Positions 12,698-33,689 are shown, counted from the first letter of the stretch. The stretch is DNA of 64,000 nt from Acidobacteriota bacterium (GCA_039191605.1 JBCCXL010000003.1:257543-321542); one strand, 5' to 3'. The notes: generated by a model from the sequence alone, not told the origin. Numbers and translations: made by a program.

Positions 12698-15202
12698 GTG
12701 GACCCCTGGCTGCAGGATGTGCGCACCGGATGGCGCTCCCTGTGGCGGCATCGGCGCATCAGCGTCGCTGCCGTGCTCTGCATCGCGCTCGGGGTGGGGG
12801 TCAACAGCGTCGCCTTCTCGACCATCGACGGCCTGCTCTTCAAGCCGCTGGATCTTCCCGCGGCTCACCGTCTGGTGACGGCCTACGTCTCTTGGCCCGG
12901 ATTCGAGCACGCCAGCTTTTCCTTCGCCAACTACCGAGACATAGAGCGCGACAACGAGGTCTTCGAGAGCTTCGCCGCGGCGCGCTTGGTCACCGCAAGC
13001 GTGGCTCCCAAGGCAGTCTCGTCAGGTCGAGGAGCATCCAACGCCGGGGTAACTGAGGGCGTAGCAGCTGAGGCCGGCGCCCAGCGGCTGATGGCGCAGC
13101 TGGTCACCGCCCACTATTTCGACGTCCTGGGGGTGGCTCCGGCGCGCGGGCGAGCTTTTCAGGGCGATAGCGACGAGCTGATCGGAAGCCCTGCGGAGGT
13201 GATTCTGGGGCACGATTTTTGGCGCCGGAGATTCTCGGTAGAGGAAGAGGTCCTCGGCGAGACCCTGCGCATCAACGGGCGTCCCTTTCGCATCATCGGC
13301 ATCATGCCGCGAGGGTTTCACGGCACCTATCGCCTGGTGCGGCCGGACGTCTACCTACCGGTCACCATGGCGCAGCTGCTGGTGCCGAAGGCCAATCTCG
13401 AGAATCGCGGCAATGGCTGGCTGCTCTCCGTGGGGCGTTTGAGTCAGGGGGTGAGCATCGATCAGGCGCGCGCGAGTCTGAACCGCCTGGCGGAGGGGAT
13501 GGAGCAGCAGCACCCTCGACTGCTGGACGGTTGGGGGCTGACCCTGGTCTCCGGGGGTGAGCAGGATCTCCCTCCCCCATTGCGCTCCCGGTTGGCCTCC
13601 GCGTCTCGATGGATCCTGGCCCTCGCTGCCCTCGTCCTGCTGGTGGCCTGCGCCAACGTTGCCTCTCTGCTCCTCGCTAGAGATGAGGGGCGACGCCGGG
13701 AGTTGGCGATTCGCCGCGCCCTCGGGGCAGGCTTTGGGCGCTTGTCGAGGCAGCTAGTGACGGAGAGCGGGCTCCTGGCGCTCCTCGGCAGCACCGCCGC
13801 CTTGTCCCTTGCCTGGGTCTGTAGCCGGTGGCTGCCGGCAGCGCTGCCGGATCATCTGCCGGTGCGGATGGAACCTGCCCTGGCTCCCGATGGTCGGGTT
13901 CTGGCCTATGCCTTGGTTCTTTGTCTGGTGACCGCGGTGGTCTGTGCTCTGGCCCCGGCGCTACGGGGGGCGAGGGGGGAGATCTACTCGGCCCTGGGGT
14001 CGAGAGGGCGAGCTAGCGGTCGGCGAAGGTGGGGCTTGGGAAGCTTTCACTCCACTCTGGTGATCGCTCAGCTCGCTCTCTCGCTGGTGCTGTTGGCGAG
14101 CGCCGGTCTCTTTGTGCGCTCCCTGCAGCAGGCGCAGAGGATCGACCCCGGGTTTCGTTCCGAAGGGGTTCTACTGGCGGCCATCGACCCTTCTCTAGTG
14201 GGGTACGACGAGCCTCGTGGGCGCGAGCTCTACGATCGCCTTCTGCAGCGAGTGGCGAGCCTGCCGGGGGTGGAGTCGGCGGCCCTCGGTGAGGTGGTGC
14301 CGTTAGGGGTTGGCGGGGGGCAGCAGCGAGGGATCTTGGTGGAGGGGTACGAGGCGGCGCCGGATGAGCGCATGAACCCCGACTTCAACGTGGTTGGCAG
14401 CGGCTACTTCGAGTTGATGGAGATGGCTCTTGTGGCGGGGCGGACCTTCGATTCCACCGAGACGCCCGGATCTTTGCCGACGGTGGTGGTGAACCGCACC
14501 ATGGCAGAGCGCTATTGGCCCCCAGGGGAGGCGGTGGGAGGGCGGTTGAGCTACGGTGGCCCCTGGGCTCGAGTGGTGGGGGTGGTGGAGGACATTCAAT
14601 ACCAGAGCCTCGGAGAGGCTCCCCGGCCCTACCTTTATCTGCCTTGGGAGCAGGTTTGGGAGGCCTCCATGGAGCTCCATGTGCGCAGCCAGAGTCCGGC
14701 GGATCAGCTGGTGCCGCTGTTGCGCCGGGAGGTGGCGACCCTGGACCCGGCGCTGCCGGTGTTTTCGGTGCGTACCCTGCGGGAACACACCGCTTCTGCC
14801 CTCTACTTGCCTCGCCTCGGGGCCGGCTTTGTCGGTGCTTTCGGCCTGCTGGCGCTGGGGCTAGCGGTGGTGGGGCTAGCGGGGGTGATGGCCTACGGAG
14901 TGCGGCGGGCGCGCTCGGAGATGGGCATCCGAATCGCCCTGGGGGCTGATCCGCGGAGAATCTTCTGGCAGGTGCTGCGGCAGGGCCTGAGCGTGGTCTC
15001 GGTGGGCGTCGCCCTCGGCCTGCTGACGGCGGTAGGCGTCGGCCAGCTGCTGGCGGGCTTTCTCTACGGTACCTCCCACGCCGATCCGGTCACCCTAGGG
15101 CTGGCGGCGGGCTGTTTGGTGCTCGTCGCCGCGGTGGCGGTTTCGGTGCCTGCGCGCCGCGCGATGAAGGTGGATCCGGTGTCGGTGCTGCGGGAGGAGT
15201 AG
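12698..15202 (+). CDS. Duplicated FtsX-domain ABC permease (MacB-like; ADOP 'acidobacterial duplicated orphan permease' type)
   Basis: 834 aa with a GTG start. N-terminus ...WRSLWRHRRISVAAVLCIALGVGVNSVAFSTIDGLLFKPLDLP... There are two FtsX-like 4-TM modules, each preceded by a large extracytoplasmic domain. No adjacent ATPase gene. Confidence 0.8.
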   Translation: MDPWLQDVRTGWRSLWRHRRISVAAVLCIALGVGVNSVAFSTIDGLLFKPLDLPAAHRLVTAYVSWPGFEHASFSFANYRDIERDNEVFESFAAARLVTASVAPKAVSSGRGASNAGVTEGVAAEAGAQRLMAQLVTAHYFDVLGVAPARGRAFQGDSDELIGSPAEVILGHDFWRRRFSVEEEVLGETLRINGRPFRIIGIMPRGFHGTYRLVRPDVYLPVTMAQLLVPKANLENRGNGWLLSVGRLSQGVSIDQARASLNRLAEGMEQQHPRLLDGWGLTLVSGGEQDLPPPLRSRLASASRWILALAALVLLVACANVASLLLARDEGRRRELAIRRALGAGFGRLSRQLVTESGLLALLGSTAALSLAWVCSRWLPAALPDHLPVRMEPALAPDGRVLAYALVLCLVTAVVCALAPALRGARGEIYSALGSRGRASGRRRWGLGSFHSTLVIAQLALSLVLLASAGLFVRSLQQAQRIDPGFRSEGVLLAAIDPSLVGYDEPRGRELYDRLLQRVASLPGVESAALGEVVPLGVGGGQQRGILVEGYEAAPDERMNPDFNVVGSGYFELMEMALVAGRTFDSTETPGSLPTVVVNRTMAERYWPPGEAVGGRLSYGGPWARVVGVVEDIQYQSLGEAPRPYLYLPWEQVWEASMELHVRSQSPADQLVPLLRREVATLDPALPVFSVRTLREHTASALYLPRLGAGFVGAFGLLALGLAVVGLAGVMAYGVRRARSEMGIRIALGADPRRIFWQVLRQGLSVVSVGVALGLLTAVGVGQLLAGFLYGTSHADPVTLGLAAGCLVLVAAVAVSVPARRAMKVDPVSVLREE

Positions 15203-15282
15203 AGCGGTTTTCGCCGCGGCTTCGCCGTTGCCCTTGCCGCCTGTAATTCCCTTGTGCGCTCCGCGTACGGTCCGCTGGTGCG

Positions 15283-18200
15283 CTAACCGCGCATCAAGCG
15301 CAGCGGCATCTCCGGGAAGGTGAGGCGCTGGTCCGTAGCGGCGTCGAGGATCTCGGCGTTCTCCGGTACCTGAAAGAGGAAGACGTTGCGCAGGGCCGGG
15401 TCCAGGAAGCCGGCTTTGCGCATCAGCTCTCGATAGGCCAGGCGGAGAAAGCGGATCGAGCCGGTGCCGGGAATGCCGTAGCGGTGAACCCACTCCAGGC
15501 CGCGATAGAGGCGAAGATCCAGAAGCTCCTGGCGCTCCGCCGGGTCGAGGGTCTCCCGGCGCTGTTCCAGCAGGTGGCAGAGCTCCGGGATGCGGGCGGC
15601 GTCCTGGGTGTTGAGGGCGAGCTCCAGCTCGTAGGACAGGTCCACCAATCCAGAGCTGGAGTTGTTGTGGCGCTGGTGAATCTCTCGCGCGTTGCGCAGA
15701 TGCTCGGCGGCTTCCAGAGCGTTGCGCTGCCGCAGATGGATTCTCCCGATCAGCTGCTCCGCGTCGCCGAGGGTCTCGGATTCGGGCATCATCTGCAGCG
15801 TGAAGTGGGCCCGCCGGGCCGTGGTCATCGCCTCGTTGGTGCGCCCGAGAAGCAGCCAGTTGGCGGCGAGATTGAGCTCGGCGATGGCCGCCCCCACCGT
15901 GTCGCCGATCTCCTCCCGCAGCTTGAGGGATCGCTTCAGGTGAGCCTGGGCTCCGACCCCATCTCCGAGGCGGTGGAGGACCCGGCCAATGCCGAGGAGA
16001 GCGAAGCTCACTTCCCCGGGATCCCCGTGGTCTTCGAGGAATTCCTTGGCCTTTTTGTAGAAGCCCAGGGACTTGGCGTAGTTCCCTCGCGCCAGAGAGG
16101 TGGCTCCGAGGGCGGAGAGGGAGGCTCCGAGAGCCTTCAGGTTGCCTACCCGGTGGCGTAATTCGAAGGCCTTGCGGTGATGTTCCATCGCCTCCTTGAG
16201 CCGGCGCTGGCGCAGCGCGATATTGCCGAGGTAATACCAGCAGGAAGCTACCTGGGTGCGGGATCCACGGGATTCCAGCAGCGGCAGCAGCTGCTCGAGA
16301 AGAGACCTCGCTTCGTCGTAGCGCTCGCGGCGAATCAGGATCTTGACCAGCTGCAGCAGCAACAGGGCCTGGCGGCCGGGGTCTTCCTCCACCACCAGCT
16401 CCAGGGCCTGGCGCAGCACTCGCTCGCTGTCTTCTAGTCGCCCCTTGGCGAGATCGACCTCGCTGCGCAGGCCGGCGAAGGCGAGGTACTTTCGAGGCTC
16501 TCCGTCCGCTAGCTCCAGGGCGCGATCGATCTCCGCCTCGAAGGCCTCGAGGCGGCCCAGGCGTCGCGCCAGCGGGAGCAGGATCCACAGCAGCTGGAGC
16601 TCGATTTCGGCGTTTCCTTCTCGCCTTTGATGCCCGCTGAGCTCTTCCGCCAGGGCATCGAGGATCTCGTCCGGCTCCAGCCCCTGGGGGTGCGATTGAG
16701 CCAGTTCGAGGATCGGAGGCACCGCCGCGGCGCTGCCGGAGAGCAGCTGATACGCGTGCCAGCGGGCCAGGGGAGCATCGCTGGCGTGGGCGAGGATCTC
16801 TCCCGCGGCTTGGCGTACCAGCCCCTCTTCGTCGATCATCGTCTCCCGCAGCCCGACCTCGAAGGCGTCGGAGGTGAAGCGAACGCCGATCCCCCAGGGG
16901 GTGCTCTCCTGGGTAAGCCAGCCGGCGTGCACCAGCCTCACTTCCCAATCCGTCGACAGCTGGGCGCCGAGGAGCTCCGCCGCCGCCGAGATCTCCCGGG
17001 CAGGCATGGCAAGGCTGGCGGTAGCGAGCAGCTGAAGCCCCTGGCCGCCGCCGAGGGCGAGGTTCTCCGCCTCCAGGTGCTGGACGAAGCGGCTGGAGGG
17101 CAGATAGGGCTCCTGTCCGCTGCCGTTGAAGAAGAAGCTGCCGTAGATGCGCCGCAGCACGTTGCGGTGAATCAGCTTGATCAAACCCTCTTCGAAGGCG
17201 AAGGGAATACCGTCGCTGGCCTGGAGGAAGCGCTCCTTCACCTCTTCGGGCATCGATAGGCCGGAGGTCAGGCCGTCCGCCAAGACTTCCATCTCGCGCC
17301 GCGCCATGGCCGGAATCGAGACTTCGGGGCTGGTATTGGCGATCGGCGACCAGCGCGCGCCGCGGCGCCCCAGAAGCACGAAGAGGGTGAGATCTTCGAG
17401 GACCGGTTCGGCGATGAGCCGGTCGATGGTGGCGATATCGCTGGGGTGGGAGTTGGGGACATCGTCGAGAATCAGGCGCACCGGCTCGCCCAGCCTGCGG
17501 GCGGTGCTGCGCAGGGTCTCCGTCAGAACTTCGTGAACGATGGCCGGATCGGGCTCCTCGCCGTGATCCACCAGCCAGTCGGCGTAGGGCTCCAGGCCCA
17601 TGCTGGCGAGGGCCTGCTGGGGGTCTTGATCGAGGAGGTCTCCGGCATGGTTTCTCACCAAGGCCTCAAGGATCCTCGCCGCGACTCCAGAGCGCTGGGA
17701 CCGCAGTGGCGGAACCGTGACCCATACCGGGGTCGCGGTGCGCATCAGGCTGTGGTCCGCTCTCTTCTTGCGTCTTTGGGCCGGGTCGCAGCCGAAGGTC
17801 TGCCAGGCGATGCGGGTCTTGCCGCTGCCCAGAGGGCCCACCAGGCGCAGAACCCGAGCGCCGCTGCGGCCGAGGATCGCCTGCTCAATGGTGGGGCGGG
17901 GGACGTATTCGGGTCTCAGCCCCAGCAGCTCCGGATTGCGCCAGGGCTCCAGGGCCCGCTCTCGGCCATCGAGACGATAGAGGTTGGCCCGGCTCCCGCT
18001 TTGGCCACGGAATTCCTGCTGCGGCGCGGTGGGCCAACGCTTCGCCAATCGACTCGCGGCGTAGCCGGTGAGATAGACCTCGTCCATCGGCACCCGAGGT
18101 GCGTAGCTCAGCAGGTCGTCGAGGAGCGCTTCCGGCACCAGCTCGCAGCGCCCCTGGCGCAGGTGCACCGAGCCGGGGAGCAGCAGAAAGGCACTGGCGG

Positions 18201-18489
18201 CGCCCTGCGCGCCGCGGGCGCTACGACAGCGTCGCAGCAGCTGCAGAGCGCAGCCGGTGGCGGAATCCGCCTCGCCGGCATCTCCCGGGATCGGCAGGAA
18301 GGCATATAGCCTGCCTCCGGAAGCGCTGCGCACGTCGGTGAGGGCCTCGACGCCGGGAAGCTCGTCGAGGTGTTGTTCGGCGAGCTGGAGCTCGTCGTCC
18401 TGGCCCTCGATGGACCAATGATAGAGAAGGACAACGGGCAGGACTCGAGGCAGAGTCTTGGGGCGAGTCGCGTCGGCTTCAATCGACAT
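15283..18489 (-). CDS. Large signal-transduction NTPase: degenerate cyclase-homology-like N-domain, P-loop NTPase (GPLGSGKT), C-terminal TPR repeats
   Basis: 1068 aa. Walker A is LVGPLGSGKTRIAW at about aa 215. The C-terminal half has many ~34-aa helical repeats (…YYLGNIALRQRRLKEAMEHHRKAFEL… …ALLGIGRVLHRLGDGVGAQAHLKRSLKL…). The N-terminal ~190 aa loosely resemble class III nucleotidyl-cyclase folds but lack clear catalytic residues. AGGAG lies upstream of the ATG at 18489. Confidence 0.7.
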   Translation of the reverse strand: MSIEADATRPKTLPRVLPVVLLYHWSIEGQDDELQLAEQHLDELPGVEALTDVRSASGGRLYAFLPIPGDAGEADSATGCALQLLRRCRSARGAQGAASAFLLLPGSVHLRQGRCELVPEALLDDLLSYAPRVPMDEVYLTGYAASRLAKRWPTAPQQEFRGQSGSRANLYRLDGRERALEPWRNPELLGLRPEYVPRPTIEQAILGRSGARVLRLVGPLGSGKTRIAWQTFGCDPAQRRKKRADHSLMRTATPVWVTVPPLRSQRSGVAARILEALVRNHAGDLLDQDPQQALASMGLEPYADWLVDHGEEPDPAIVHEVLTETLRSTARRLGEPVRLILDDVPNSHPSDIATIDRLIAEPVLEDLTLFVLLGRRGARWSPIANTSPEVSIPAMARREMEVLADGLTSGLSMPEEVKERFLQASDGIPFAFEEGLIKLIHRNVLRRIYGSFFFNGSGQEPYLPSSRFVQHLEAENLALGGGQGLQLLATASLAMPAREISAAAELLGAQLSTDWEVRLVHAGWLTQESTPWGIGVRFTSDAFEVGLRETMIDEEGLVRQAAGEILAHASDAPLARWHAYQLLSGSAAAVPPILELAQSHPQGLEPDEILDALAEELSGHQRREGNAEIELQLLWILLPLARRLGRLEAFEAEIDRALELADGEPRKYLAFAGLRSEVDLAKGRLEDSERVLRQALELVVEEDPGRQALLLLQLVKILIRRERYDEARSLLEQLLPLLESRGSRTQVASCWYYLGNIALRQRRLKEAMEHHRKAFELRHRVGNLKALGASLSALGATSLARGNYAKSLGFYKKAKEFLEDHGDPGEVSFALLGIGRVLHRLGDGVGAQAHLKRSLKLREEIGDTVGAAIAELNLAANWLLLGRTNEAMTTARRAHFTLQMMPESETLGDAEQLIGRIHLRQRNALEAAEHLRNAREIHQRHNNSSSGLVDLSYELELALNTQDAARIPELCHLLEQRRETLDPAERQELLDLRLYRGLEWVHRYGIPGTGSIRFLRLAYRELMRKAGFLDPALRNVFLFQVPENAEILDAATDQRLTFPEMPLRLMRG

Positions 18490-18769
18490 GGGGGGCTCCT
18501 ATGAAGCCGCTCTCGCAAGACATCATGAGATTCCGGCGCGATAAAAAAGACCGGAAGGGGGTTCAACTCCCAGGGAATCGGAACGAGATAGGAAATGGAA
18601 AAGAGCTGAGGAGAGAAGAACGCAAATCGGAGCTAAGCGGGAGGATCCGTGGGGCGTTGGACCCAGGCCCGAAGAAATCGAGAGCTGCCTTCAGGATATC
18701 TCGAAGCGCGATCCCGCGCGAGGGGGTCCAGGGTGCCTTGAACTAGCCATTTTGGGCTCATCGGCGACA

Positions 18770-18825
18770 TTTGGAGTGATAATGAATTGTGTATTTAAAT
18801 TATTAAAGCAATTTTTTCTATTAAG
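18770..18825. other. AT-rich island in a GC-rich context (…gataatgaattgtgtatttaaattattaaagcaattttttctattaag…)
   Basis: Read directly. It lies immediately 3' of the PqqB-like gene stop and inside the ~340-bp lower-GC region upstream of the NTPase gene. Confidence 0.6.
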
Positions 18826-19950
18826 TTACAGTGGAATGCGCTGACCTTCCTGGGCCACCGTAAAGCCCTTGGCGGCGAGGTTGCGGTAGAGCTCGCTGCT
18901 GCTGTCGTGAAGAGGGTTGGAGTGATTCAGGTGAATGAAGAAAACCTGGAGCCGGCCCTCGCTGACCGCCCCGGCGAAGCGGCGAGCGCTATCGGTGGCG
19001 AAGGGGTGGGGAACGGCGCTGAGATCGCGTCCGGGAAGCTCGTCGGGGCTGCCGAAGGTAGCGTCTACCAGGGCGACATCCACCTCGTCGAGGATCTCCT
19101 CCACCGGCGGGTCCCAGCGCTCCCAGGAATCTGTGTCGGGAACGTAGAAAACCCTCTGCTGCGGGCCCGAGAAGCGAAAGCCGACGGTGTCGGAGAGCTC
19201 GTCGCGATGGGGTACAGAGATCGCCTCGACCCGCACGCTACCGGCGGCAGTGGTCGTAGCTATTGGCTCCGAGTCGGTATCGGCGGCGGCATTTCCATGA
19301 TCTATTCCCTCCCCCAGCACCACGCTCTCCCCCGGCGCCAGCGGCCGCAGATCGAGCACTCGATCCTCCACCAGCGTGCGCCAAGGCTCGTTGGCGCGCA
19401 GAAAAGCCGCCATGGCGGGAGTGCACCATACCGGGAGATCGCGACTCGCCAGGGTCTCTTTGCCGAAGTAGGCCAAGCCCAGGTAGTGGCCGATATGGGC
19501 GTGGGTGAGAAAGACTCCGTCCACCGGCTGGCGATCGACGCCGCCTTCCCGCGGGCCGTCGATCGCCGCCGCCAGGGCTTCCAGCTGCCGACCCAGATCG
19601 GGGGTGGCGTCTACCAAATAGCGCAGCGGGCGACCTTCGGCCCTCGGTACGACCACCGCCAAGGAGGCCACCGAGCGGCGGTATTGTGGGTCCTCGATGG
19701 CGCGGCGGCAGTTGGCCCGGGTGCATCCGGGGTGAGGAAGTCCGCCGTCCTGCGCATTGCCCAACACCAGCAGGAAGGGAGCCGGCGGGCTCTCGCTCTG
19801 GGCCGACAGTGGAACGGCCAGGGGCGAGGCTAGGGTCGTAGCGAAGGCTGTGCCTAAGAAGAACAGCGCCAAGAAGCAGGGGCCCATAGAGTGCCGGGGG
19901 AAAGCGAGCAGCGCGCGAAGGGGGCGGGAGATGGCGATCAAAGCAGTCAT
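18826..19950 (-). CDS. PqqB-family metallo-beta-lactamase-fold protein with predicted N-terminal signal peptide
   Basis: ...LLVLGNAQDGGLPHPGCTRANCRRAIEDPQYRRSVASLAVVV...YLVDATPDLGRQL... parallels the PqqB N-terminus ([20 protein letters not shown]...RTQSSIIV...NASPDISQQ). The C-terminus ...VFYVPDTDSWER...IHLNHSNPL... parallels PqqB ...LFYAPGLGEPDE...IHINNTNPIL.... A hydrophobic leader MGPCFLALFFLGTAFATTLASPLAVPLSAQS is present. The start is chosen at MTALIAIS (19950); the ORF track extends to 20121. Confidence 0.65.
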   Translation of the reverse strand: MTALIAISRPLRALLAFPRHSMGPCFLALFFLGTAFATTLASPLAVPLSAQSESPPAPFLLVLGNAQDGGLPHPGCTRANCRRAIEDPQYRRSVASLAVVVPRAEGRPLRYLVDATPDLGRQLEALAAAIDGPREGGVDRQPVDGVFLTHAHIGHYLGLAYFGKETLASRDLPVWCTPAMAAFLRANEPWRTLVEDRVLDLRPLAPGESVVLGEGIDHGNAAADTDSEPIATTTAAGSVRVEAISVPHRDELSDTVGFRFSGPQQRVFYVPDTDSWERWDPPVEEILDEVDVALVDATFGSPDELPGRDLSAVPHPFATDSARRFAGAVSEGRLQVFFIHLNHSNPLHDSSSELYRNLAAKGFTVAQEGQRIPL

Positions 19951-20193
19951 GGGGTCTCCGGCGGTAGCCGCCTCAACGGGTCGCGGCGTTACGAGAGCAC
20001 GAAGGAATCTAGATCCGGTGGGAACTCGAGAAGAAGCGTCTTCAGCAATGATATATTCACGGTTTGGGGCAGAGCCGCTGTGCCTGTATCGCCTTTCTGG
20101 CCGACCGCCCCGATTCACCACCTAGATCGATCGCTCTGCGCTCCATCTGTCTCAGGGAGCCTTTTCCCCGCCCGCACTCAGGAGGACACTCCG

Positions 20194-20742
20194 ATGAGCC
20201 CCCGACGGCTACATAACCGACTGTACTATTTCACCGTGGAGGACGAAGGCATTCTCGCCGAAGCCTTCGCCCGCATGGATCCTGACGTCTACGCCATCAC
20301 CTACAAGGTCACCGGTACGGACGATGTCTTCGTCACCACCACCGAGACTCGCGACGCGATGGATCGCGCGGATATCGCCTACAACCTGCTGGCGGAGGAA
20401 GACGGAACCCGGATCTCTCTCTACCACTCTCCCCTCTCCCTGGAGGAGTTGTCGGATTTCGATGACGCCATCAAGGCTCTCGGATTGGCCTATCGCGCCA
20501 TCGGCATGGCCTGCGTTGGGGTCAACGGCGAAGGTAATCTCGGCTTCGATCTATCCCAGGGCACCAAGAAGTACACCTACTTCACCGCCCCCGCTGGACA
20601 CACCTTCATCTGGCGGCTCTTCCATGAGAAGAACGAGGCGCGAACCTTTCTCGAGCAGCTCACCACCGGCGACCAAGAAGCCATGGAATGGGTGGAGGCG
20701 CTGCCGATGGAGAGCTCCGATCAGCTGGTCTCTTACCACTGA
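20194..20742 (+). CDS. Hypothetical protein (~183 aa)
   Basis: ORF with AGGAGGACACTCCG before the ATG at 20194 (MSPRRLHNRLYYFTVEDEG...). No family recognised. Confidence 0.45.
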   Translation: MSPRRLHNRLYYFTVEDEGILAEAFARMDPDVYAITYKVTGTDDVFVTTTETRDAMDRADIAYNLLAEEDGTRISLYHSPLSLEELSDFDDAIKALGLAYRAIGMACVGVNGEGNLGFDLSQGTKKYTYFTAPAGHTFIWRLFHEKNEARTFLEQLTTGDQEAMEWVEALPMESSDQLVSYH

Positions 20743-20814
20743 TCCCCGCACCGATCCCTGGAGAGGGAGGGGAGCCGGAACAAGAGTGAGCAGAGAGTTT
20801 GGTGAGTTGAGGGC

Positions 20815-22257
20815 GTGATGAAGCGTGGCTCGAGATCATTGTGGGCTGAGGTGAACGCCGAGCCCACGGTTCGGGTAGCTCAGCTCTGTGGCGAGATTCA
20901 ATCCCTGGTGCGCCAGGGGTTCTCCTCCCTTTGGGTCGCCGGAGAAGTGCAGAGAGTCCAGCGCAGCCAGCGCGGCCATCTCTACTTCGAGCTGGTGGAC
21001 AAAGGGCAGGGGGATCGGGTCACGGCGAAGATCGACGCGGTGATCTGGCGTTCCGATCTCGCGAAGGTGGAGCGAGAGCTGCGCCGCAGTGATCAGAAGC
21101 TGGCGCCGGGCGTGGAGCTGCGATGCCGCGGAGGGGTGGACTTCTGGCCTCCCGGAGGGCGCCTGCAGCTGGTGGTGCGGGAGGTGGACCCGGCTTTCTC
21201 TCTGGGCCAGCTGGAGCTGCGCCGTCGCCAGACCCTGGCGGCGCTGCAAAAAGCCGAGCTGCTGGATCGCAACTCGGCCCTGACGCTGCCCCCGGTGCCC
21301 CTCAGGGTGGGCATGGTGAGCTCCTACGAGAGCGCGGCGTACCACGATTTCCTCTCCTCGCTGCAGTCCATCGCCTACGGTTTCGAGGTCACCTTCGTGC
21401 ACGCTGCGATGCAGGGGGCCGAAGCCGAACGAGAGGTGGTGTCGGCGCTGCGCGCCCTCGCCGGGCTGCCGCTGGACGTGGTGGTGGTGGTGCGGGGCGG
21501 CGGCTCGCGCACCGACCTAGCGGCCTTCGATAGCCGAGCGATTTCAGAAGCCATCGCCCGCTTTCCGCTACCGGTGGTCACCGGCATCGGCCACGAGATC
21601 GATCAGAGCATCGCCGACCGAGTCGCCCATACCGCGGTGAAGACCCCCACCGGGGCGGCGGAGCTGCTCATCGACCGAGTGGCGGGAGCGGATCTCGCCC
21701 TCGAGCAGATACAGCAGCGCCTATTGATCGCCGCTCGGGATCCGTTGAGCCGCGGCAAGGAGCGCCTGCTTCAGGCGGAGCGCGGGATGCGTCGGGCTCA
21801 GCTGCGATTGGCCTCCGTGTCCGCCCGCCTCGAGGAGCATGGGCGACGGCTGGCGCGCCTCGGCGGCGAGAGCCTGAGGCGCGGCGGGAGTGAAGTCCAG
21901 CGAATCGCCCAGCGCCTCGGCGTGGCCTCGCCCCGTTTTCTGGGGCGTCGCCGCGAGCTGCCGGAGACCCTGATGCATCGGGTGGTGATCAGCGCGCGAG
22001 CGAGGCTGGCCCGGGCTCATGCGGAGGTCGATGGCCGAGCTCGGCTGTGTCGTGATCTCGACCCCCAGCGCACCCTAGAACGGGGCTTTTCCATCACCCG
22101 CAGCGTCGACGGACGGCTGCTGCGGGGAGAGGGAGATCTCGCCGTAGGGGATCAGCTAGTGACTCGTTTCGCCGCCGGCAGCTGGATCAGCCGAGTGGAG
22201 GCGGAGCAAGAGGATTTGAACGTCGAACCCCCTGAGCCTACCGTGGAGACGCCATGA
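20815..22257 (+). CDS. xseA: Exodeoxyribonuclease VII large subunit
   Basis: The N-terminal OB-fold region ...VAQLCGEIQSLVRQGFSSLWVAGEVQRVQRSQRGHLYFELVDKG...RVTAKIDAVIWRS... and the catalytic core ...VVVVRGGGSRTDLAAFD...PVVTGIGHEIDQSIAD... are present. Confidence 0.85.
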   Translation: MMKRGSRSLWAEVNAEPTVRVAQLCGEIQSLVRQGFSSLWVAGEVQRVQRSQRGHLYFELVDKGQGDRVTAKIDAVIWRSDLAKVERELRRSDQKLAPGVELRCRGGVDFWPPGGRLQLVVREVDPAFSLGQLELRRRQTLAALQKAELLDRNSALTLPPVPLRVGMVSSYESAAYHDFLSSLQSIAYGFEVTFVHAAMQGAEAEREVVSALRALAGLPLDVVVVVRGGGSRTDLAAFDSRAISEAIARFPLPVVTGIGHEIDQSIADRVAHTAVKTPTGAAELLIDRVAGADLALEQIQQRLLIAARDPLSRGKERLLQAERGMRRAQLRLASVSARLEEHGRRLARLGGESLRRGGSEVQRIAQRLGVASPRFLGRRRELPETLMHRVVISARARLARAHAEVDGRARLCRDLDPQRTLERGFSITRSVDGRLLRGEGDLAVGDQLVTRFAAGSWISRVEAEQEDLNVEPPEPTVETP

Positions 22258-22532
22258 GCACTGATCCGACTACTGGCCCGATCCCTGGCCCCGAGAGCGC
22301 ATCCCCCGTCGAGAGCCAGCTAGAGGGAGAGAAGCTCTCCTTTTCCGATGCCCTCCAGCAGCTGGAGGAGATTCTCGGCCGCATCGAAGACGAGCGCATC
22401 GATATCGACGAGCTGGCGACGGAGCTGCGGCGAGGAGCGGGTCTACTGGATCTTTGCCGGGGCAAGATCCGGCGGGCGGAGCTCGAAGTGACCCAAATCG
22501 TGCAGCGCCTGGAAGACAGCGACGAGGGTTGA
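22254..22532 (+). CDS. xseB: Exodeoxyribonuclease VII small subunit
   Basis: 92 aa, with an ATGA start/stop overlap with xseA. ...LSFSDALQQLEEILGRIEDERIDIDELATELRRGAGLLDLCRGKI... is the typical XseB helical hairpin. Confidence 0.8.
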   Translation: MSTDPTTGPIPGPESASPVESQLEGEKLSFSDALQQLEEILGRIEDERIDIDELATELRRGAGLLDLCRGKIRRAELEVTQIVQRLEDSDEG

Positions 22533-23835: not shown

Positions 23836-25893
23836 ATGGTCACTCTTGGCATTATCGCCCTCGTGCTCTTCGGCATTTTCGTGCTGCTGGGTCTACTGGT
23901 TCTTGTCGCTCGCTTCTATAAGAAGGTGGAGCAAGGCAAGGCGCTGATCGTTAACAAGATGTCCGCCGAGCCGGAAGTCACCTTCACCGGGGCCGTCGTG
24001 TTGCCGGTGATCCACAAGGCGGAGGTGATGGATATCTCGGTGAAGACCATCGAGATCGATCGCCGCGGTCTCGACGGTCTGATCTGTCAGGACAACATCC
24101 GGGCGGACATCAAAGTCACCTTCTTCGTGCGGGTGAATAAGACCAAGGAAGACGTCATCAAGGTCGCGCAGGCCATCGGCTGTCAGCGAGCTTCAGATCC
24201 GGGGACCCTCGAGGTGCTCTTCAACGCCAAGTTCTCGGAAGCGCTGAAGACCGTCGGTAAGCAGCTCGACTTCGTCGACCTCTACACCAAGCGGGATGAG
24301 TTCCGGGATCAGATCATTCACGTCATCGGGCGTGACCTCAACGGCTACGTGCTGGAGGACGCGGCCATCGACTATCTCGAGCAGACCCCGCTGGAGAAGC
24401 TCGATCGGGACAACATCCTCGATGCCCAGGGCATTCGCAAGATCACCGAGCTGACGGCGATTCAGCACGTCGCCACCAACGATTTCCGCCGCGACGAAGA
24501 GAAGAAGATCAAGAAGCAGGACGTCGAGGCGCGGGAGACGATTCTCGCCCTGGAGCGTCAGCAGGCGGACGCCGAGGCGCGACAGCGCCGCGAGATCGAA
24601 ACCGTGAAGTCGCGGGAGGAAGCGGAGATCCTGCGAGTCGCGGCGGAGGAGCTGCAGAAATCAGAGACCGCTCGCCTGGACTCCCAGGAGCAGGTCGCGG
24701 TGCGCGAAGAGAATATGAAGCGCCAGGTGGAGGTCGCGGCGAAGAATCGCGAGCGGGTGGTGGCCATCGAGCAGGAGCGGGTGTTGAAAGACAGCTCCCT
24801 AGAGGCGATCAGCCGCGAGCGGGAGGTGGAGCTACAGCGCATCGCTAAAGAGAAGGAGCTCGAGAAGGAGCGTAAGGCCATCGCCGACGTGGTGCGGGAG
24901 CGCATCGCGGTGGACAAGACGGTGGCGGAAGAGGAAGAGGGCATCAAGCGCCTGCGGGTGATCGAGGAAGCGCGCCGCACCAAGGAGGCAGCGGTGCTGA
25001 TCGCTGAGGGCGCCGCGGAAGAAGCGCTGGTGAAGGACGTCAAGGCGGCGGAAGCGGCGGAAGCGGCGGCGAAGCACAAGGCTCGCGAGATGCAGGTGCT
25101 CGCCGACTCGGAGCTCGCGGTGGCGGACAAGGAAGCTCAGTCGAAGATTCGACTCGCCGACGGTACCCAGGCTGCCGCGGCCGCCGAGGGCTTGGCCAAG
25201 GTCAAGGTGAAGGAGGCGGACGCCGTCGCTACCGAGAAATACGGTCTAGCGGAGATTCGGGTGAAGGAGGCGGACGCCGCCGCCCTGCGCCAGGTCGGCA
25301 CCGCGGAGGCGGAAGTGGAGCGCGAGAAGGGGCTCGCCACCGCGTCGGCGCTGGAAGCCAAGCTGGAGGCGGAAGCCAAGGGCCTGCGCGAGAAGGCCGA
25401 TGCGATGGCCGCCCTGGATGAGGTCAGCCGCCAGCACGAGGAATATCGACTGCGACTGGAGACCGAGAAGGACATCGAGCTGCGCGCCATCGAGGCTCGC
25501 CGCCAGGTGGCCGAGGCGCAGGCAGAGATGCTCGCCACCGCGCTGTCCTCCGCGAATATCGATATCGTCGGCGGCGAGAGCATCTTTGTCGACCGCCTGA
25601 TGAGCTCGCTGTCCTCGGCCAAGTCCCTGGACGCCTTCATGGACCGCAGCGAGACCGCGAAGCTGGCTCTGAAGGATTACGTGGACGGCGGACGGAGCTT
25701 CGCCGGAGACGTGCGGGAGGTGCTGGCGCAGAGCGATCTCGGCTCCGAGGACCTCAAGAACCTCACCCTCGCGGGGCTCTTGTCCCGCCTTGCCCGAGGC
25801 AAGTCCGGCGAGCAGGCCGAGCGTCTCGGGGAGCTGGCAAAGTTGGTGAACGAGGCGGGACTCGGAAACCTGCGCGCTCGCCTGGACGATTGA
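23836..25893 (+). CDS. Flotillin family protein (SPFH/band-7 domain; YqiK-like) with long Ala/Glu/Lys-rich coiled-coil
   Basis: 685 aa. N-terminal TM, then the SPFH domain ...FYKKVEQGKALIVNKMSAEPEVTFTGAVVLPVIHKAEVMDISVKTIEIDRRGLDGLICQDNIRADIKVTFFVRV.... An extended EA-repeat coiled-coil follows, typical of bacterial flotillins. Confidence 0.85.
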   Translation: MVTLGIIALVLFGIFVLLGLLVLVARFYKKVEQGKALIVNKMSAEPEVTFTGAVVLPVIHKAEVMDISVKTIEIDRRGLDGLICQDNIRADIKVTFFVRVNKTKEDVIKVAQAIGCQRASDPGTLEVLFNAKFSEALKTVGKQLDFVDLYTKRDEFRDQIIHVIGRDLNGYVLEDAAIDYLEQTPLEKLDRDNILDAQGIRKITELTAIQHVATNDFRRDEEKKIKKQDVEARETILALERQQADAEARQRREIETVKSREEAEILRVAAEELQKSETARLDSQEQVAVREENMKRQVEVAAKNRERVVAIEQERVLKDSSLEAISREREVELQRIAKEKELEKERKAIADVVRERIAVDKTVAEEEEGIKRLRVIEEARRTKEAAVLIAEGAAEEALVKDVKAAEAAEAAAKHKAREMQVLADSELAVADKEAQSKIRLADGTQAAAAAEGLAKVKVKEADAVATEKYGLAEIRVKEADAAALRQVGTAEAEVEREKGLATASALEAKLEAEAKGLREKADAMAALDEVSRQHEEYRLRLETEKDIELRAIEARRQVAEAQAEMLATALSSANIDIVGGESIFVDRLMSSLSSAKSLDAFMDRSETAKLALKDYVDGGRSFAGDVREVLAQSDLGSEDLKNLTLAGLLSRLARGKSGEQAERLGELAKLVNEAGLGNLRARLDD

Positions 25894-25951
25894 GGGCTCG
25901 GCTCGATGACGATCCGCGATGCGTTCCTCCTCCGGTGATGAAGGATCGGTC

Positions 25952-28900
25952 ATGACGGACGATCCTAATCTCGCCCGAGACGGTGCTGCCGAGGAGGCTT
26001 CCGCTCAGGGGGCAGCGCCGGGGGATGGTGACGCCGCCCTGGAGCGCGGCACCTACGAGCTGCTTCGAGAGCGGCTTGAAGGGGCCGCGGCGGTGCTGCG
26101 GCAGCAGGCCCAGCAGCTCAACTCGGCTCGCCTCGAGACCTTCGGCTCCAGCGAGCTGACCCTCGCCGGCCAGAGCCGCATCCGCACCGAGCACAATTGC
26201 CGTCCGCGGGATATCGCTACCGTCGGGGAGCGGCTCATCGTCGGATACGAGGTGCATTTCGGCCTGCGGCGGGAGACCTCCGTCGGTCACGTCTTCAGCG
26301 TCCATCGCTTCGGCGCCGAGGAGGGGGCCGATGCGCCCCCTCATCTGGAGCCAGCCCGTCCGGGAGACGATGGATTCCTGCAGGATGAGCGCTTCGCCCG
26401 AGATTTCGAGGAGCTCTTCCGCTACTACAAAGACACCCGCCTGCTGCAGCTGCGCAACGTCGGCGATCGCCTCTTGGGGGTCTTCCAGGTGGGCACCCGC
26501 CTTTCAGACCTCAAGGTGTTTCGCTGGAGTCTGGATCCCGAGGGTGGCGTCAGCTACATCGACAATCGAGGCGAGCGGGACCATACCTTCGCCGCCGCCT
26601 ACGACTTCGAGTGGCAGGAGGTCAGTCGCGACAGCGTCGTGCCGGGCCGTCACCCGCACCTCTCCATCGAGGACGAGCTCTTCGTCGAGACCATCGGTGG
26701 GGATCTCACCATCAAGGTAGAGAACAACACCGAAGACGGGCTGGGGATCTATCAAGAGCCGGTCATCGACCCCGATCAGAGCCTGGATGACGCCGAGCTT
26801 CGCTACGCTCGGGTGGGATCATTGATCCTGCTCTCGGTGCTGCCCTATCGCGAGCCCCAGGCGCGCTATTTCGTCTACAACACCCGCAACCGCACGGTGC
26901 ACCGTATCGACGCCATCGGCCAATCCTGCCGGCAGCTGCCGGAGGACCACGGCCTGATCTTCCCCGGCGGCTACTACCTGACGGCGACGGATTCTCCCAA
27001 GACCTTCGATCTGCGCCTCGACGGCCTGGAGCTGAAGACTTCGGTGCGCTCCCCCAACGGGGAGGACGTGCTCTACATCTTCCACCAGCGCTCCGAGGGC
27101 CGCAGCGTGCTGCTGCCCTACAACCTGATCCGCAAGGCGGTGGCGACGCCCATCGAATGCTTCGGCTTCACTATTTTCGACGACGGTACGCTGGTGGTCT
27201 TCCGGGCGATCTCCGATGAGCCGTCGCGGGTGCATCCGCTGCAAATCTGGCGTACGCCCTTTGCCAAGGCCGAATTCTTCGAATCTCCCAGCGATGGCTC
27301 TCCGCTGCAGCGATTGGGCAACGCGGAGCTGGTGCGAGGGATCTCCGACGCGCTGTCCCTCGCCCAGCGGGTGATGGAGCAGGAGCCCTCGCGGCGGGTG
27401 TACGAAGATCTCATCGCCGCCGCCCGGCGGATGGAAGACGCCTACCACTGGCTGGGGGACGAAGCCTACGGTGGCCTCGGAGAGGCGGTCGCCGAGCTGG
27501 TGGTGCTGGCGGAGCAGGTGGTCGATGAATTTGAGAAGGTGGAGGCGCTGCGGGCGCGGGCTCACGACGAGGTCAACACCGCTGAGGCGGAGCTCGACGA
27601 GCTGCTGTCGGGCCTCGCGCCGAGCTCCATCGATCGGGTGGAGCCCTTTCTCGAGGCCCTCGCTCAGCTGCGCCGGGCCCGCGGGCATCTGATCACGCTG
27701 CGGGATCTGCGCTACGCTGACCTCGACCGCCTGGAGGCCCTAGAGCAGCGAGCTCAGGGGGCCTTCGACGAGGTCAGCGAGCACGCGGTGGCCTTCTTCG
27801 CCGAGCCGAAAGCCCTGGAGCCCTTCCGCCGTACCCTGGGAGAGCTGGAGAGCTCGGTGGAGGCGGTGAGCTCGCTACGGGAGATCGATCCGCTGGCCCA
27901 GCGGGTGGACGAGCAGGCCCAGGGGCTGGAGCTGCTGGCCCAGGTGACCTCCGGGCTAGAGAGCGACGACGCCACCGTGCGCACCCGCATCCTGGAAGGG
28001 GTGAGCGAGGTGCTGGGGCAGCTGAACCGGGTGCGGGCCATCGTAGACGCTCGTCGCCGCGAGGTCGGAGCGCGGGAGGCGCGGGCGGAATTCGGCGTGC
28101 AGTTCCAGCTTCTCGGCCAGTCCGCCGCCGGGGCTCTGGCGGTGGCGAGCACCCCCGAAGCCTGTGATGAACAGCTGGCCAAGGTGCTGCTGCAGCTGGA
28201 GGACCTGGAGGCGCGCTTCGGCGCCTACGACGACTTCCTGGAGCAGATCACCACCAAGCGCGACGATCTCTACGAGGCCTTCGCCAGCCGCAAGCAGCGA
28301 CTCCTGGACGAGCGTCAGCGGCGGGTGGAGCACCTCTTCGGCGCCGCCCAGCGGGTGCTGGAGGGTATGGAGCGAAGGGCCGAGAGCTTCGACGACGACG
28401 ACGACCTCAACGCCTTCTTCGCCTCCGACCCCCTCGCCGAGCGGCTGCGACGCCTCGGCGGTCAGCTTCGAGAGCTGGGGGCAGGAGTGCGGGCCGACGA
28501 GCTGGAGAGCCGGGTCAAGAGCGCGCGGCAGCAGGCCCGTCGGGGAATGCGGGATCGCCGCGACCTCTTTACCGCCGAGGGGGATCTCATCACCTTCGGC
28601 GCCCATCGCTTCACCGTCAACCAACAGGCTCTAGAGCCAACTCTGGTACCCCGCGGTGACGACCTGGTGCTGCATCTCACCAGCACGGAGTATTACGAGG
28701 CCCTCGAGGACGAGCGGGTACAGGCCGCCCATCAGCTTTGGGAGCAGAGCCTGCCCTCGGAGAGCGAGGAGGTTTACCGCGGGGAGTTCCTGGCCTATTC
28801 CGTGTGGGCGGATTCCTCGCTGCCGGATGATCAGCGCCCGTCTGGATTCCCCTCTCGCCGCGAGCTGGAGTCGGCCGTCGCCGAGGGGGTCGAGGGGCTC

Positions 28901-31654: not shown

Positions 31655-31751
31655 TTGTCGCTGGGTCTACCTCATCCCTAGATCGCCACGAGGCTTCGCG
31701 TAATCTGTCTTGCCTCGTGCCCTTTATTGCCGCGAAGTAAAGGAGAATTCC

Positions 31752-33689
31752 GTGAATGAACCTCTGCCTCCTTATCTGCGATCCGCGCTGTTCGTAGATT
31801 TCGACAACATCTACATCCGATTACGCGAAGAAAGTGAAGAGGCCGCCGAGCATTTCGCTTCGGAGCCCCACCGTTGGCTCCGCTGGCTCGAAGAAGAGGC
31901 GCCGATGGTGGATGACCGCTTCCTCGATACCAAGGATCTGCCCCGGCGGATTCTGCTTCGCCGCTGCTATCTCAACCCCCGATCCTTCCATCAGAGCCGC
32001 CCTGCCTTTGTTCGGGCTGGCTTCGAGGTGGTGGACTGTCCGCCGCTGACTCACGGTGGCAAGACCAGCAGCGATATCCGCATGGTGATGGACATGATGG
32101 ATGCTCTATCCCACCCCAGCACCCGCTTCGACGAGATGATTCTCTTCTCCGGGGATGCGGACTTCACGCCGATCTTCACTCGCTTGCGGGCCAATGATCG
32201 CTTTACCGTGGCTCTGATCGTCGGCCAGGCCTCTTCCGCCTACCGCTCCGCCTGCGATCTCCTGCTCAGCGCCGACGAATTTGTCGAATCGGGGCTGGGG
32301 GTCTCCGGTGAAGCCCTGGAGGCTCGCCGAGAGGCTCCAACCCGCCTGCGCCCCCTGCTGGAAGGGATGCACGGCACCGTCGCCGATGCGGTGGCCAGCA
32401 CCGGGCCGGTGCCGGCGGATCGGCTGCCGATGATTTACAAGGAGTTCTCGGAGTTCCGCGAGGGTTCCGACTGGCTGGGCTTCATGAGTCTGCGGGGGCT
32501 TACGGAGGCCGTCGTTGAGGCCGGTAGCGGTCTCGTGCTGCGGGAAGAAGACCCCTGGGTCGTCGACTACGGACAGACCCCGGTGGTGAATCGTGGCGAG
32601 TCGGCGGTGCCTGCATCTGGCCCCAGCCCCAGCCCGAGCTCGGGCCCCAGCCTGGGCCCCGGTCCGTCCGCTCCTCCGCCTACCGGTTGGCGCAGCGATT
32701 TCGGCGAGCGCGCCGCGGCGGTGGTGCGGGCAGCGGTGGTCGAGTCCGACGAGCCGCTGAGCCTCGCGGGTCTCTCCCATCGCCTGATGCGCGAGCTGGG
32801 GGAAGGGGTGCGCTCCCGCGCCTGGCAGGGCGCCGGCTCTTTCCGCGCCTTCCTCGAGGGGCTAGACCTCGAAGGCCTGGAGATCTCCCGGGTCACGCCG
32901 GGCTACGTGTATGACCCGGTGCGCCATGACCCGCCGGCGGAGGCCCGCGACGGGGACGAATTCGCCCGCCGCTACCCGGAGCTTTCGGAGCTCGCCCGGC
33001 GCATTCATGACGCCACCGACGCGCCCTACCTGATGCCTGACGTGTACGCGGTGATGATGCGGGTCATCGCCGAGGAGATCAACGAGCGGGGCTACCACCT
33101 GGTGCGGACCTCCAAGGCGGTGCGCGACATCTGCAACGGCAAGGGTGTTCCGGTGGCCCGCTCCCACGTTTCTTTCGTCCTCAAGGGCATCCAATACTCG
33201 GGTTATTCCTATCGCCAGGGTCAGGAGAGCGCCCAGGAGCTGGGCCGAGCCTTCGTCCAGAACCTGCTCTTCCTCTGCGATCGTGCCGAGCTCTCTTTGT
33301 CAGATGACGAGAGCGACGCCGTGCGCCGCTGGATCCTCGCTCCCATCGACTACTCCCCAGGAGCCTCCGCCTCGCCGAGCCCTCCCGCTACGAGCTCCCG
33401 CCCGTCGACCTCCTCCGATGAGAGTTGGGAAGAAGACGACGAGTACGAGGACTACGACGAAGAGGACGATTGGGACGGCGAGGACGAGGAAGGTGACGAA
33501 CCCGACGCCGATCCCGACGCCGAAGCCTCCGACGAGGACGAGGACGAGGAGGACTTCGACGACGAGGAAGACGACGAAGAAGACGACGAAGAAGACGAGG
33601 ATGAGGGCGACGAGGACGACGACGAAGACGAGGATGAGGACGACGACGAAGACGACGATGACGAAGAAGAGGACGACAAGGACGATTGA
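31752..33689 (+). CDS. NYN-domain (LabA-like PIN-fold) protein with OST-HTH/LOTUS-like repeats and ~90-aa polyacidic C-terminal tail
   Basis: The NYN signature is ALFVDFDNIYI...SSDIRMVMDMMDALSHPSTRFDEMILFSGDADFTPIF...FTVALIV. The middle and C-terminal segments (…LPMIYKEFSEFREGSDWLGFMSLRGLTEAV… and …LSLAGLSHRLMRELGEGVRSRAWQGAGSFRAFLEG…) resemble OST-HTH modules. The tail is an uninterrupted D/E run. The GTG start at 31752 sits 6 nt after AAGGAG. The ORF track's TTG at 31710 is less likely. Confidence 0.75.
   Translation: MNEPLPPYLRSALFVDFDNIYIRLREESEEAAEHFASEPHRWLRWLEEEAPMVDDRFLDTKDLPRRILLRRCYLNPRSFHQSRPAFVRAGFEVVDCPPLTHGGKTSSDIRMVMDMMDALSHPSTRFDEMILFSGDADFTPIFTRLRANDRFTVALIVGQASSAYRSACDLLLSADEFVESGLGVSGEALEARREAPTRLRPLLEGMHGTVADAVASTGPVPADRLPMIYKEFSEFREGSDWLGFMSLRGLTEAVVEAGSGLVLREEDPWVVDYGQTPVVNRGESAVPASGPSPSPSSGPSLGPGPSAPPPTGWRSDFGERAAAVVRAAVVESDEPLSLAGLSHRLMRELGEGVRSRAWQGAGSFRAFLEGLDLEGLEISRVTPGYVYDPVRHDPPAEARDGDEFARRYPELSELARRIHDATDAPYLMPDVYAVMMRVIAEEINERGYHLVRTSKAVRDICNGKGVPVARSHVSFVLKGIQYSGYSYRQGQESAQELGRAFVQNLLFLCDRAELSLSDDESDAVRRWILAPIDYSPGASASPSPPATSSRPSTSSDESWEEDDEYEDYDEEDDWDGEDEEGDEPDADPDAEASDEDEDEEDFDDEEDDEEDDEEDEDEGDEDDDEDEDEDDDEDDDDEEEDDKDD
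33420..33686 (+). repeat. Low-complexity GA[CGA]-codon run encoding the D/E-rich tail of the NYN protein
   Basis: ...DEEDDWDGEDEEGDEPDADPDAEASDEDEDEEDFDDEEDDEEDDEEDEDEGDEDDDEDEDEDDDEDDDDEEEDDKDD. Confidence 0.9.

Follow-up and report, generated by a model that had tools for sequence, protein, structure and literature searches.

The 64,000-nucleotide stretch JBCCXL010000003.1:257543-321542 of the Acidobacteriota bacterium assembly GCA_039191605.1 (the window; all positions are counted from its first letter) carries on its minus strand a gene for a 1,068-amino-acid (aa) protein that joins a class III nucleotide cyclase-like N-domain to a STAND-type ATPase module (NOD) and a tetratricopeptide repeat (TPR) sensor region. 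We refer to it here as the STAND protein and to its homologues of the same architecture as the pseudo-cyclase STAND family. A preliminary description, made from the sequence, had proposed a STAND-like NTPase with a GPLGSGKT P-loop and a TPR region, and the open reading frame (ORF), the AAA_16 and TPR matches in Pfam and a full-length structural model all bear this out. The gene and its product comprise the following features, ordered along the protein.

15283-18489, minus strand: coding sequence of the pseudo-cyclase STAND-TPR protein, complete with its stop codon, 1,068 aa (from the ORF list and translation)
18496-18500, minus strand: Shine-Dalgarno-like AGGAG, 6 nt 5' of the ATG at 18489 (read from the sequence)
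17971-18447, minus strand: cyclase homology domain with predicted class III fold, residues 15-173 (from AlphaFold and Foldseek)
17929-17946, minus strand: PWRNPE linker motif, residues 182-187, family-specific, with W183 and N185 at least 90% conserved
17305-17895, minus strand: P-loop nucleotide-binding domain of AAA_16 type, residues 199-395 (from Pfam AAA_16 and the strand and helix order of the model)
17815-17838, minus strand: Walker A motif GPLGSGKT, residues 218-225
17461-17478, minus strand: Walker B motif hhhhDD, residues 338-343
17167-17301, minus strand: NOD helical domain, residues 397-441, with the GxP motif G427-I-P429 in 'GIPFAFEEG'
17122-17157, minus strand: beta-hairpin RRIYGSFFFNG, residues 445-456, an insertion that separates the helical domain from the winged helix
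16870-17094, minus strand: NOD winged-helix domain, residues 466-540, four helices followed by beta-beta, with the wing at 525-538
15331-16869, minus strand: arm and TPR solenoid, residues 541-1053, all-helical with 26 helices and a conserved C-terminal helical cap, no helix-turn-helix (HTH)

The start at 18489 is the earliest ATG possible for this ORF. The protein is 100% identical to one deposited from an Acidobacteriota metagenome-assembled genome (MAG; P0001, on a 392-kb contig), whose sole name is 'tetratricopeptide repeat protein'. With homologues in more than 100 clusters and a confidently predicted fold, the gene is genuine and not a chance ORF of high-GC DNA. Its GC content (0.672) and its GC content at third codon positions (GC3, 0.827) are both like those of the window and of the neighbouring genes. 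A 617-aa ORF in an alternative frame (15095-16948, minus strand), which overlaps real genes, is a high-GC artefact.

The N-domain was modelled with AlphaFold on its own (residues 1-205, from a 45-sequence alignment), with a predicted local distance difference test score (pLDDT) of 88.7 and a predicted template modelling score (pTM) of 0.80. The model has the topology beta-alpha-beta-beta-alpha-beta-beta-alpha-beta-alpha-beta-beta, and its secondary-structure elements, which recur in the separate full-length model, follow the same order as in the class III cyclases Rv1264, Rv1900c, Cya2 and soluble guanylyl cyclase beta. In a Foldseek search of the PDB, the top 50 matches were all catalytic domains of class III adenylyl or guanylyl cyclases, among them soluble guanylyl cyclase beta, RhGC, Rv1264, Rv1900c, Rv1625c, Cya2, Ma1120 and photoactivated cyclases (E about 1e-7, probability 1.00, template modelling score 0.5-0.65, 10-17% identity over about 180-200 columns). 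As modelled, then, the N-domain is a class III cyclase fold. This assignment relies on predicted structure because the tests at the level of sequence failed or were marginal: the Guanylate_cyc family PF00211 had no match at E<=10 in any of five close members, and the family hidden Markov model (HMM) matched no solved cyclase among the PDB sequences. The loose resemblance to a cyclase noted in the preliminary description is thus upheld as a fold, while a Guanylate_cyc match that might have confirmed it by sequence did not materialise.

The metal-binding, substrate-specifying and transition-state residues of class III cyclases are missing from the N-domain of the family. We located the canonical positions by global profile alignment to outgroup cyclases and read them against 80 family members, the sample that underlies all residue counts given here; a set of 17 outgroup proteins served for the comparison of motifs.

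First metal-binding Asp (F-x-D, end of beta1): Y23/H24 in the query; Arg in 40/80 members, then Tyr, His and Lys, no conserved Asp
Second metal-binding Asp (G-D, beta2-beta3): G59 in the query, inside a hairpin insertion that 77/80 members lack
Substrate-specifying Lys: no residue in the query; no conserved counterpart and no conserved Lys before beta3
Transition-state Asn (helix alpha4): A121 in the query; Pro or Ala in the family
Transition-state Arg (helix alpha4): D125 in the query; Asp in 55/80 members

The N-domain residues that are at least 90% conserved are P66, A77, P105, T141 and G165 only, and they look structural. No acidic residue of the domain is near-invariant or reaches 90% conservation in the 80 members, the moderately conserved ones being D70 (53/80), D/E120 (64/80) and D125 (55/80). 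The segment ...LYAFLPIPGDAGEADSA... aligns to the beta3 region 'FG-x-P-x-x-HEDDA-x-RA' of bacterial cyclases and not to the catalytic 'IGD'. Clear catalytic residues, which would mark an active nucleotide cyclase, were looked for and, on this weak alignment of 80 members, not found. The six canonical residues are not conserved, and from their substitution the cyclase domain is predicted to be catalytically dead.

The ATPase module presents the opposite picture, in that its signature residues are retained. It is reached through a linker (residues 174-198) with the PWRNPE motif, whose pattern PW[RH]N occurs in 53/80 family members and in 0/17 outgroup proteins. Each of the five close homologues has an AAA_16 match (best E 1e-9); residues 209-361 of the query give one at E 4e-5, below the Pfam cut-off. 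In the Walker A motif G218, G221 and G223 are present in 80/80 members, K224 in 79/80 and T/S225 in 78/80, D342 of Walker B is kept in 77/80, and the sensor Arg375 in 76/80. G427 and P429 of the helical-domain GxP motif are at least 90% conserved; the role of this motif in STANDs and the definitions of STAND domain features are taken from PMC6468293. The longer form 'GxP[FL][AF]lEE' is common to the family and 10/17 outgroup AAA_16 proteins. The hairpin that follows has its strands at 445-448 and 451-454 in the model and is strongly conserved (R446 77/80, G450 79/80, F453 73/80). Its YGSFFF motif is found in 67/80 family members and 0/17 outgroup proteins, and the pairwise identity of the segment, 0.43, is the second highest of the protein. 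RRIYGSFFFNG is also the most conserved motif outside Walker A. Three defining elements of a STAND protein are present, namely a P-loop with Walker A and B motifs, a GxP helical domain followed by a winged helix, and a repeat sensor after an arm. Judging by these residues, the AAA_16/STAND module (residues 199-540) appears to have an intact nucleotide switch and is predicted to be a live ATPase.

The full-length AlphaFold model, built with 80 sequences, assigns the whole chain (pLDDT 93.4, pTM 0.84). Pfam TPR_12, TPR_2, TPR_10 and TPR_MalT cover residues about 640-980, and the best full-length match by Foldseek in the PDB is the STAND protein PH0952 (6MFV; E 1.7e-13, 761 columns, 14% identity), followed by TPR proteins. 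The middle of the TPR region (residues 701-900) has the highest pairwise identity of all segments (0.45), is free of gaps and has 31/200 columns conserved to 90% or more; at the other extreme, the nucleotide-binding domain reaches 0.28 and the cyclase fold 0.29, the lowest values of the protein. The preliminary description had seen no HTH at either end and had named a C-terminal LuxR- or HTH-type domain as the sign of a transcriptional regulator. None was found: Pfam and NCBIfam searches of the protein returned no HTH, LuxR/GerE, BTAD or Trans_reg_C domain, its final 105 aa had no Pfam match at E<=5, and NCBIfam gave partial matches to the TPR region only, e.g., AfsR at 44 bits against a cut-off of 1,430 bits. 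A hidden DNA-binding domain is excluded because, in the full-length model, all of the chain but some 14 residues at either terminus belongs to assigned domains. The modelled architecture runs from a cyclase fold through the NOD to an arm and TPR solenoid, with no DNA-binding and no toxic effector domain.

A word-index search for homologues returned 4 full-length relatives only (34-43% identity), by which the family looked tiny. An exhaustive HMMER search, with a profile built from the first 620 positions, yielded 1,171 proteins at E<=1e-3, including 107 representatives of 50%-identity clusters at E<1e-30 that have one uniform architecture; apart from fragments truncated by contig ends, these are mostly 980-1,080 aa long and covered from about residue 10. 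Past these representatives lies a sharp gap. The matches that come next, at E about 1e-14 to 1e-9, are the closest relatives by sequence that do not belong to the family; they are mostly proteins with Guanylate_cyc, AAA_16 and TPR domains (P0145, P0146, P0149, P0150, P0151, P0153 and P0161), whose cyclase domains are fully significant in Pfam; one SARP/BTAD-AAA_16 regulator (P0148) is also among them. The alignment of P0146 pairs profile positions 86-413 with residues 363-701, so that, with its Pfam cyclase at 319-430, it extends from the family N-domain into the C-terminal half of a bona fide cyclase domain. Since the nearest outgroup consists of such proteins with intact cyclase matches, our best reading is that the family descends from the widespread cyclase-AAA_16-TPR proteins and that its N-domain has turned into a pseudo-enzyme.

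The preliminary description had likened the domain order to that of mycobacterial cyclase-ATPase-TPR regulators. Cyclase-AAA_16-TPR proteins, including those of the Rv0386 type, have the same domain order and a similar size (about 1,000-1,150 aa) and have the AAA_16 Walker motifs and the helical-domain motif in common with the family. They retain the FxD and GD aspartates, the Asn/Arg pair and a cyclase domain detectable by Pfam, all of which the family has lost, whereas the PWRNPE linker motif and the YGSFFF hairpin are the family's own. The layout is ancient and widespread, as the plan of mammalian soluble adenylyl cyclase (sAC; full-length ADCY10) shows, which places a P-loop NTPase-like region and TPR-like repeats behind its cyclase domains. 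However, sAC has two cyclase domains that form its active site and makes cyclic AMP (cAMP), whereas here there is one domain, predicted to be dead. Rv0386 itself is described as a protein of 1,085 aa with a class IIIc cyclase, a MalT-type ATPase and TPR domains (bioRxiv 10.1101/2024.03.06.583649). Named members of the pseudo-cyclase STAND family all come from Acidobacteriota MAGs, many of them labelled Thermoanaerobaculia, and a literature search found nothing on cyclase-dead STAND proteins and no description of this family.

The surroundings of the gene in the window bear on its inheritance and on its possible partners.

12698-15202: MacB/FtsX-type permease gene, convergent with the STAND gene
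18490-18825, minus strand: intergenic region upstream of the STAND gene, 336 bp, GC 0.51 against 0.66 for the window
18826-20121, minus strand: PqqB-like metallo-beta-lactamase (MBL)-fold hydrolase gene (Pfam Lactamase_B_2; 114 bits with NCBIfam PqqB, whose cut-off is 245 bits)
about 18769-18825: AT-rich island of ~57 bp directly past the stop codon of the MBL gene, cttaatagaaaaaattgctttaataatttaaatacacaattcattatcactcc...
20194-20742, plus strand: p182, encoding a 182-aa acidic orphan protein, first gene of the operon divergent from the STAND gene
20815-22257, plus strand: xseA, exonuclease VII subunit (Pfam Exonuc_VII_L with OB fold)
22254-22532, plus strand: xseB, exonuclease VII subunit, its ORF overlapping the xseA stop codon

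The STAND gene divergently adjoins p182-xseA-xseB in 13/14 independent homologue loci with enough flank, across intergenic regions of 63-480 bp. The syntenic loci are L001-L008, L010 and L012, together with L014 and L016, which were ascertained from p182, and the distant members L017 and L018; the scan of genomes used two narrow peptide patterns from a 5-sequence alignment and probably under-samples both the genomes and the family. The window keeps this divergent arrangement with the MBL gene in between. That gene has no counterpart at the equivalent position in the 13 homologue loci and, because it is absent from all of them, is an insertion specific to the window genome, between the STAND gene and p182-xseAB. 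On the other side the neighbours vary and include VWA and 216-aa genes (several loci), M23 peptidases, an alcohol dehydrogenase, a CN-hydrolase and, here, MacB. Variation between genomes thus lies in the downstream genes and in one locus that lacks the STAND gene; the p182-xseAB side is fixed in 13/14 loci, and all members with a named source are from Acidobacteriota MAGs.

The lower-GC region of about 340 bp with an AT-rich island, noted in the preliminary description, is present as described. The 100-nt windows that start at 18726-18776 (GC 0.35-0.39) are the most AT-rich of the whole 64 kb, and no stretch of the 64 kb has a lower GC than the island itself. In the upstream region (18490-18825) Rfam gave no family at E<=1 and a scan for sigma-70 consensus promoters gave no site; terminator-like sites all lie inside coding sequence, at a frequency not above that in shuffled sequence. 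Equally strong islands were not seen in the matching intergenic regions of the other loci. Given its place at the junction with the MBL gene, the island is most economically read as a local rearrangement or a promoter region and not as a mark of STAND gene acquisition. The suggestion of a horizontally acquired gene is not supported. Because the synteny with p182-xseAB is kept in 13/14 loci and GC and GC3 are typical, the best reading is that the gene has been inherited vertically within the lineage, is dispensable in some of its members, and was not recently acquired by horizontal transfer.

The p182 protein falls into 762 clusters that are about 70% identical and all annotated 'hypothetical'. 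Its named records are from Acidobacteriota/Thermoanaerobaculia, except one labelled Deltaproteobacteria, and searches of Pfam, NCBIfam, PADLOC and PDB sequences gave no match. In every case p182 heads the operon that it forms with xseA-xseB. It is a highly conserved orphan of this lineage, possibly an exonuclease VII accessory factor, and a candidate functional partner of the STAND protein. A 164-aa ORF (20324-20818, plus strand), considered as the neighbour of xseA, was rejected as a wrong-frame high-GC artefact, p182 being the real gene. In addition, a 21-nt motif, CAATATAGCAGATAGTAGACT, is common to the p182/STAND intergenic regions of the related loci L002, L003 and L007, where it may serve as a promoter or operator; the window lacks it.

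Further out, a wider conserved block 3' of the STAND gene in L001, L002, L014, L015 and L016 consists of an HD/TraI_2 phosphohydrolase, a VWA protein of ~850 aa and a protein of ~216 aa that belongs to no family; this block is missing from the 64-kb window. Positions 23836-33689 of the window (plus strand) hold three large consecutive genes, the first for a 685-aa protein without a family match, the second for a protein of 1,911 aa that combines an AAA domain with DUF7902 and DUF3686 (the latter, 'ATPase involved in DNA repair', at E 3e-191), and the third for a 659-aa NYN-domain protein. PADLOC gave marginal matches only for these genes (IetA at 5e-4, NYN at 9e-4), which may form an uncharacterised nucleic-acid-related system.

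PH0952/MalT-type STANDs are the best structural match (6MFV) for the NOD, arm and TPR parts of the protein and have the same order of nucleotide-binding, helical, winged-helix, arm and TPR domains (PMC6468293). By analogy, autoinhibition and multimerisation driven by the exchange of ADP for ATP are probably the same. The effectors differ: PH0952 has an ArsR-like DNA-binding domain at the N-terminus and MalT a LuxR-like one at the C-terminus, whereas here the effector position is taken by the apparently dead cyclase fold. In addition, PH0952 has a conserved histidine after the wing that contacts ADP, and no obvious equivalent is seen at this place here.

With the STAND cycle of autoinhibition, ADP/ATP exchange and multimerisation taken from PMC6468293, a mechanism can be proposed. 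At rest, the TPR region and arm would keep the NOD closed on ADP, as in MalT, PH0952 and APAF-1. Binding of a conserved cellular ligand, probably a protein, to the TPR solenoid would release autoinhibition, with p182 as the prime candidate. A conserved cellular ligand or partner is favoured over a fast-evolving foreign one because the sensor is the most conserved region, inheritance is vertical and the position of the gene is fixed. ADP would then be exchanged for ATP and the NODs would multimerise head to tail, which would cluster the N-terminal dead cyclase domains. Once clustered, these domains may provide a non-catalytic platform for dimerisation or docking, or one that binds a nucleotide, and no cAMP would be made. 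In catalytically intact relatives, the same induced proximity would presumably assemble active head-to-tail cyclase dimers.

Taken together, we favour, with a probability of roughly 0.55, the explanation that the protein is a lineage-specific cytoplasmic signalling switch of pseudo-cyclase STAND type, derived from cyclase-AAA_16-TPR ancestry, vertically inherited and with an output other than cAMP. Several observations weigh against this explanation. At the level of sequence, the alignment of the N-domain to outgroup cyclase domains by hhalign is collinear over 154 columns in local mode and falls short of significance (P = 0.058; P = 0.33 in global mode), and the mapping of catalytic positions combines a weak alignment with matching of secondary structure. 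The taxonomic range relies on the MAG labels of about a dozen loci. The output step is purely inferred. Locus L009 carries the STAND gene elsewhere, not beside p182-xseAB, and L015 (3706-8793) has a contiguous VWA-218aa-p182-xseAB arrangement without the STAND gene; for these two reasons the coupling of the STAND gene to p182 is not obligatory, and because L015 is otherwise syntenic the gene must be dispensable to, or lost from, some members of the lineage. Finally, transcription regulators and the genes they control typically show such a conserved divergent layout with a short intergenic region.

The last point leads to the alternative that survives best, which we nevertheless consider unlikely: that the protein regulates transcription of the divergent p182-xseAB operon in the manner of MalT, AfsR or LAL proteins, reaching DNA via a cryptic element (e.g., the winged helix) or a recruited partner. 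Besides the family-wide divergent arrangement with its short intergenic regions, the SARP/BTAD-AAA_16 protein among the nearest relatives of the ATPase, the weak AfsR match of the TPR part and the 21-nt motif of three related loci would fit such a role. However, none of the domains sought (HTH, LuxR, BTAD, Trans_reg_C) was found, and the model leaves little of the chain in which to place one. Rv0386-type proteins have a terminal LuxR HTH, as do LAL regulators at their C-terminus, whereas the C-terminus here consists of TPR-like helices in the model; likewise, the N-terminus is a cyclase fold and not the OmpR-type winged helix with BTAD of AfsR/SARP regulators. The winged helix of the STAND NOD, moreover, clamps the nucleotide and has no known DNA binding (PMC6468293).

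Next in order, and doubtful, is a narrower proposal in which the pseudo-cyclase STAND protein and p182 form a two-protein module specific to Acidobacteriota/Thermoanaerobaculia and coupled to exonuclease VII. If this were true, p182 would either bind the unusually well-conserved TPR sensor as its ligand or be the target onto which the dead cyclase domains dock when clustered, and a STAND switch with a pseudo-enzyme effector would sense or control the processing of single-stranded DNA ends or DNA damage. The two genes stay adjacent in nearly all loci, with the exceptions given above, and their co-divergence is weak: across n=9 loci, the identities to the STAND, xseA and p182 proteins of the window correlate at rho 0.45 (p=0.22) and rho 0.67 (p=0.05).

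Distinctly improbable is an antiviral role of Avs type or in another conflict system, which the preliminary description had raised and in which the TPR region would sense a phage protein while the degenerate cyclase fold served as a new effector or adaptor. Avs proteins are built on the same three-part plan, with a TPR-like sensor behind a STAND NTPase and an N-terminal domain, and activation by oligomerisation is expected in both. About one third of STAND clades (198/589) are associated with defence (bioRxiv 10.64898/2026.01.04.697583). Absence of the gene from the otherwise syntenic L015 would suit a defence gene, as would its faster evolution relative to its neighbours, with identities across loci of 33-44% for the STAND protein, 48-58% for xseA and 58-75% for p182. 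Against this, PADLOC matched the STAND protein with PDLC01169 only, a generic TPR model and not an Avs model, and gave no significant defence model for six neighbouring proteins (two marginal matches, E near 1e-3), so this check does not substantiate a defence role. The protein has no nuclease, protease, SIR2 or TIR effector with which to kill the cell, the gene keeps a fixed position beside housekeeping genes throughout the family and does not sit in variable defence islands, and its sensor is the most conserved region and free of gaps.

Soluble guanylyl cyclase and the adenylyl cyclases of mammals include pseudo-symmetric heterodimers with one degenerate site. A cyclase that is still active through a non-canonical site, or that contributes half of a heterodimer by pairing in trans with an active domain of this kind, could draw on this precedent, on a fold that is intact and under purifying selection and on the moderately conserved D70, D/E120 and D125, but is very improbable, as both residue sets of such heterodimers (the metal-binding Asp pair and the Lys/Asp plus Asn/Arg set) are missing, no acidic residue of the N-domain reaches 90% conservation and no close member has a Pfam cyclase match.

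Cyclase-ATPase-TPR proteins are common and poorly understood, and even in Rv0386 the functions of the ATPase and of the TPR region are unexplained (bioRxiv 10.1101/2024.03.06.583649). Reading the present gene as a lineage-specific pseudo-cyclase STAND switch upgrades its annotation from 'TPR protein' and introduces no new principle. The family represents a natural separation of function, in which cyclase chemistry appears to be gone and the fold, the ATPase switch and, most of all, the TPR sensor remain under selection across the lineage. With the chemistry lost and the scaffold kept, the output of the STAND scaffold would therefore be independent of cAMP. If the link to p182 and exonuclease VII were true, a pseudo-enzyme effector would join the STAND repertoire, and a very conserved orphan of an abundant, little-studied lineage of soils and sediments would gain its first function.

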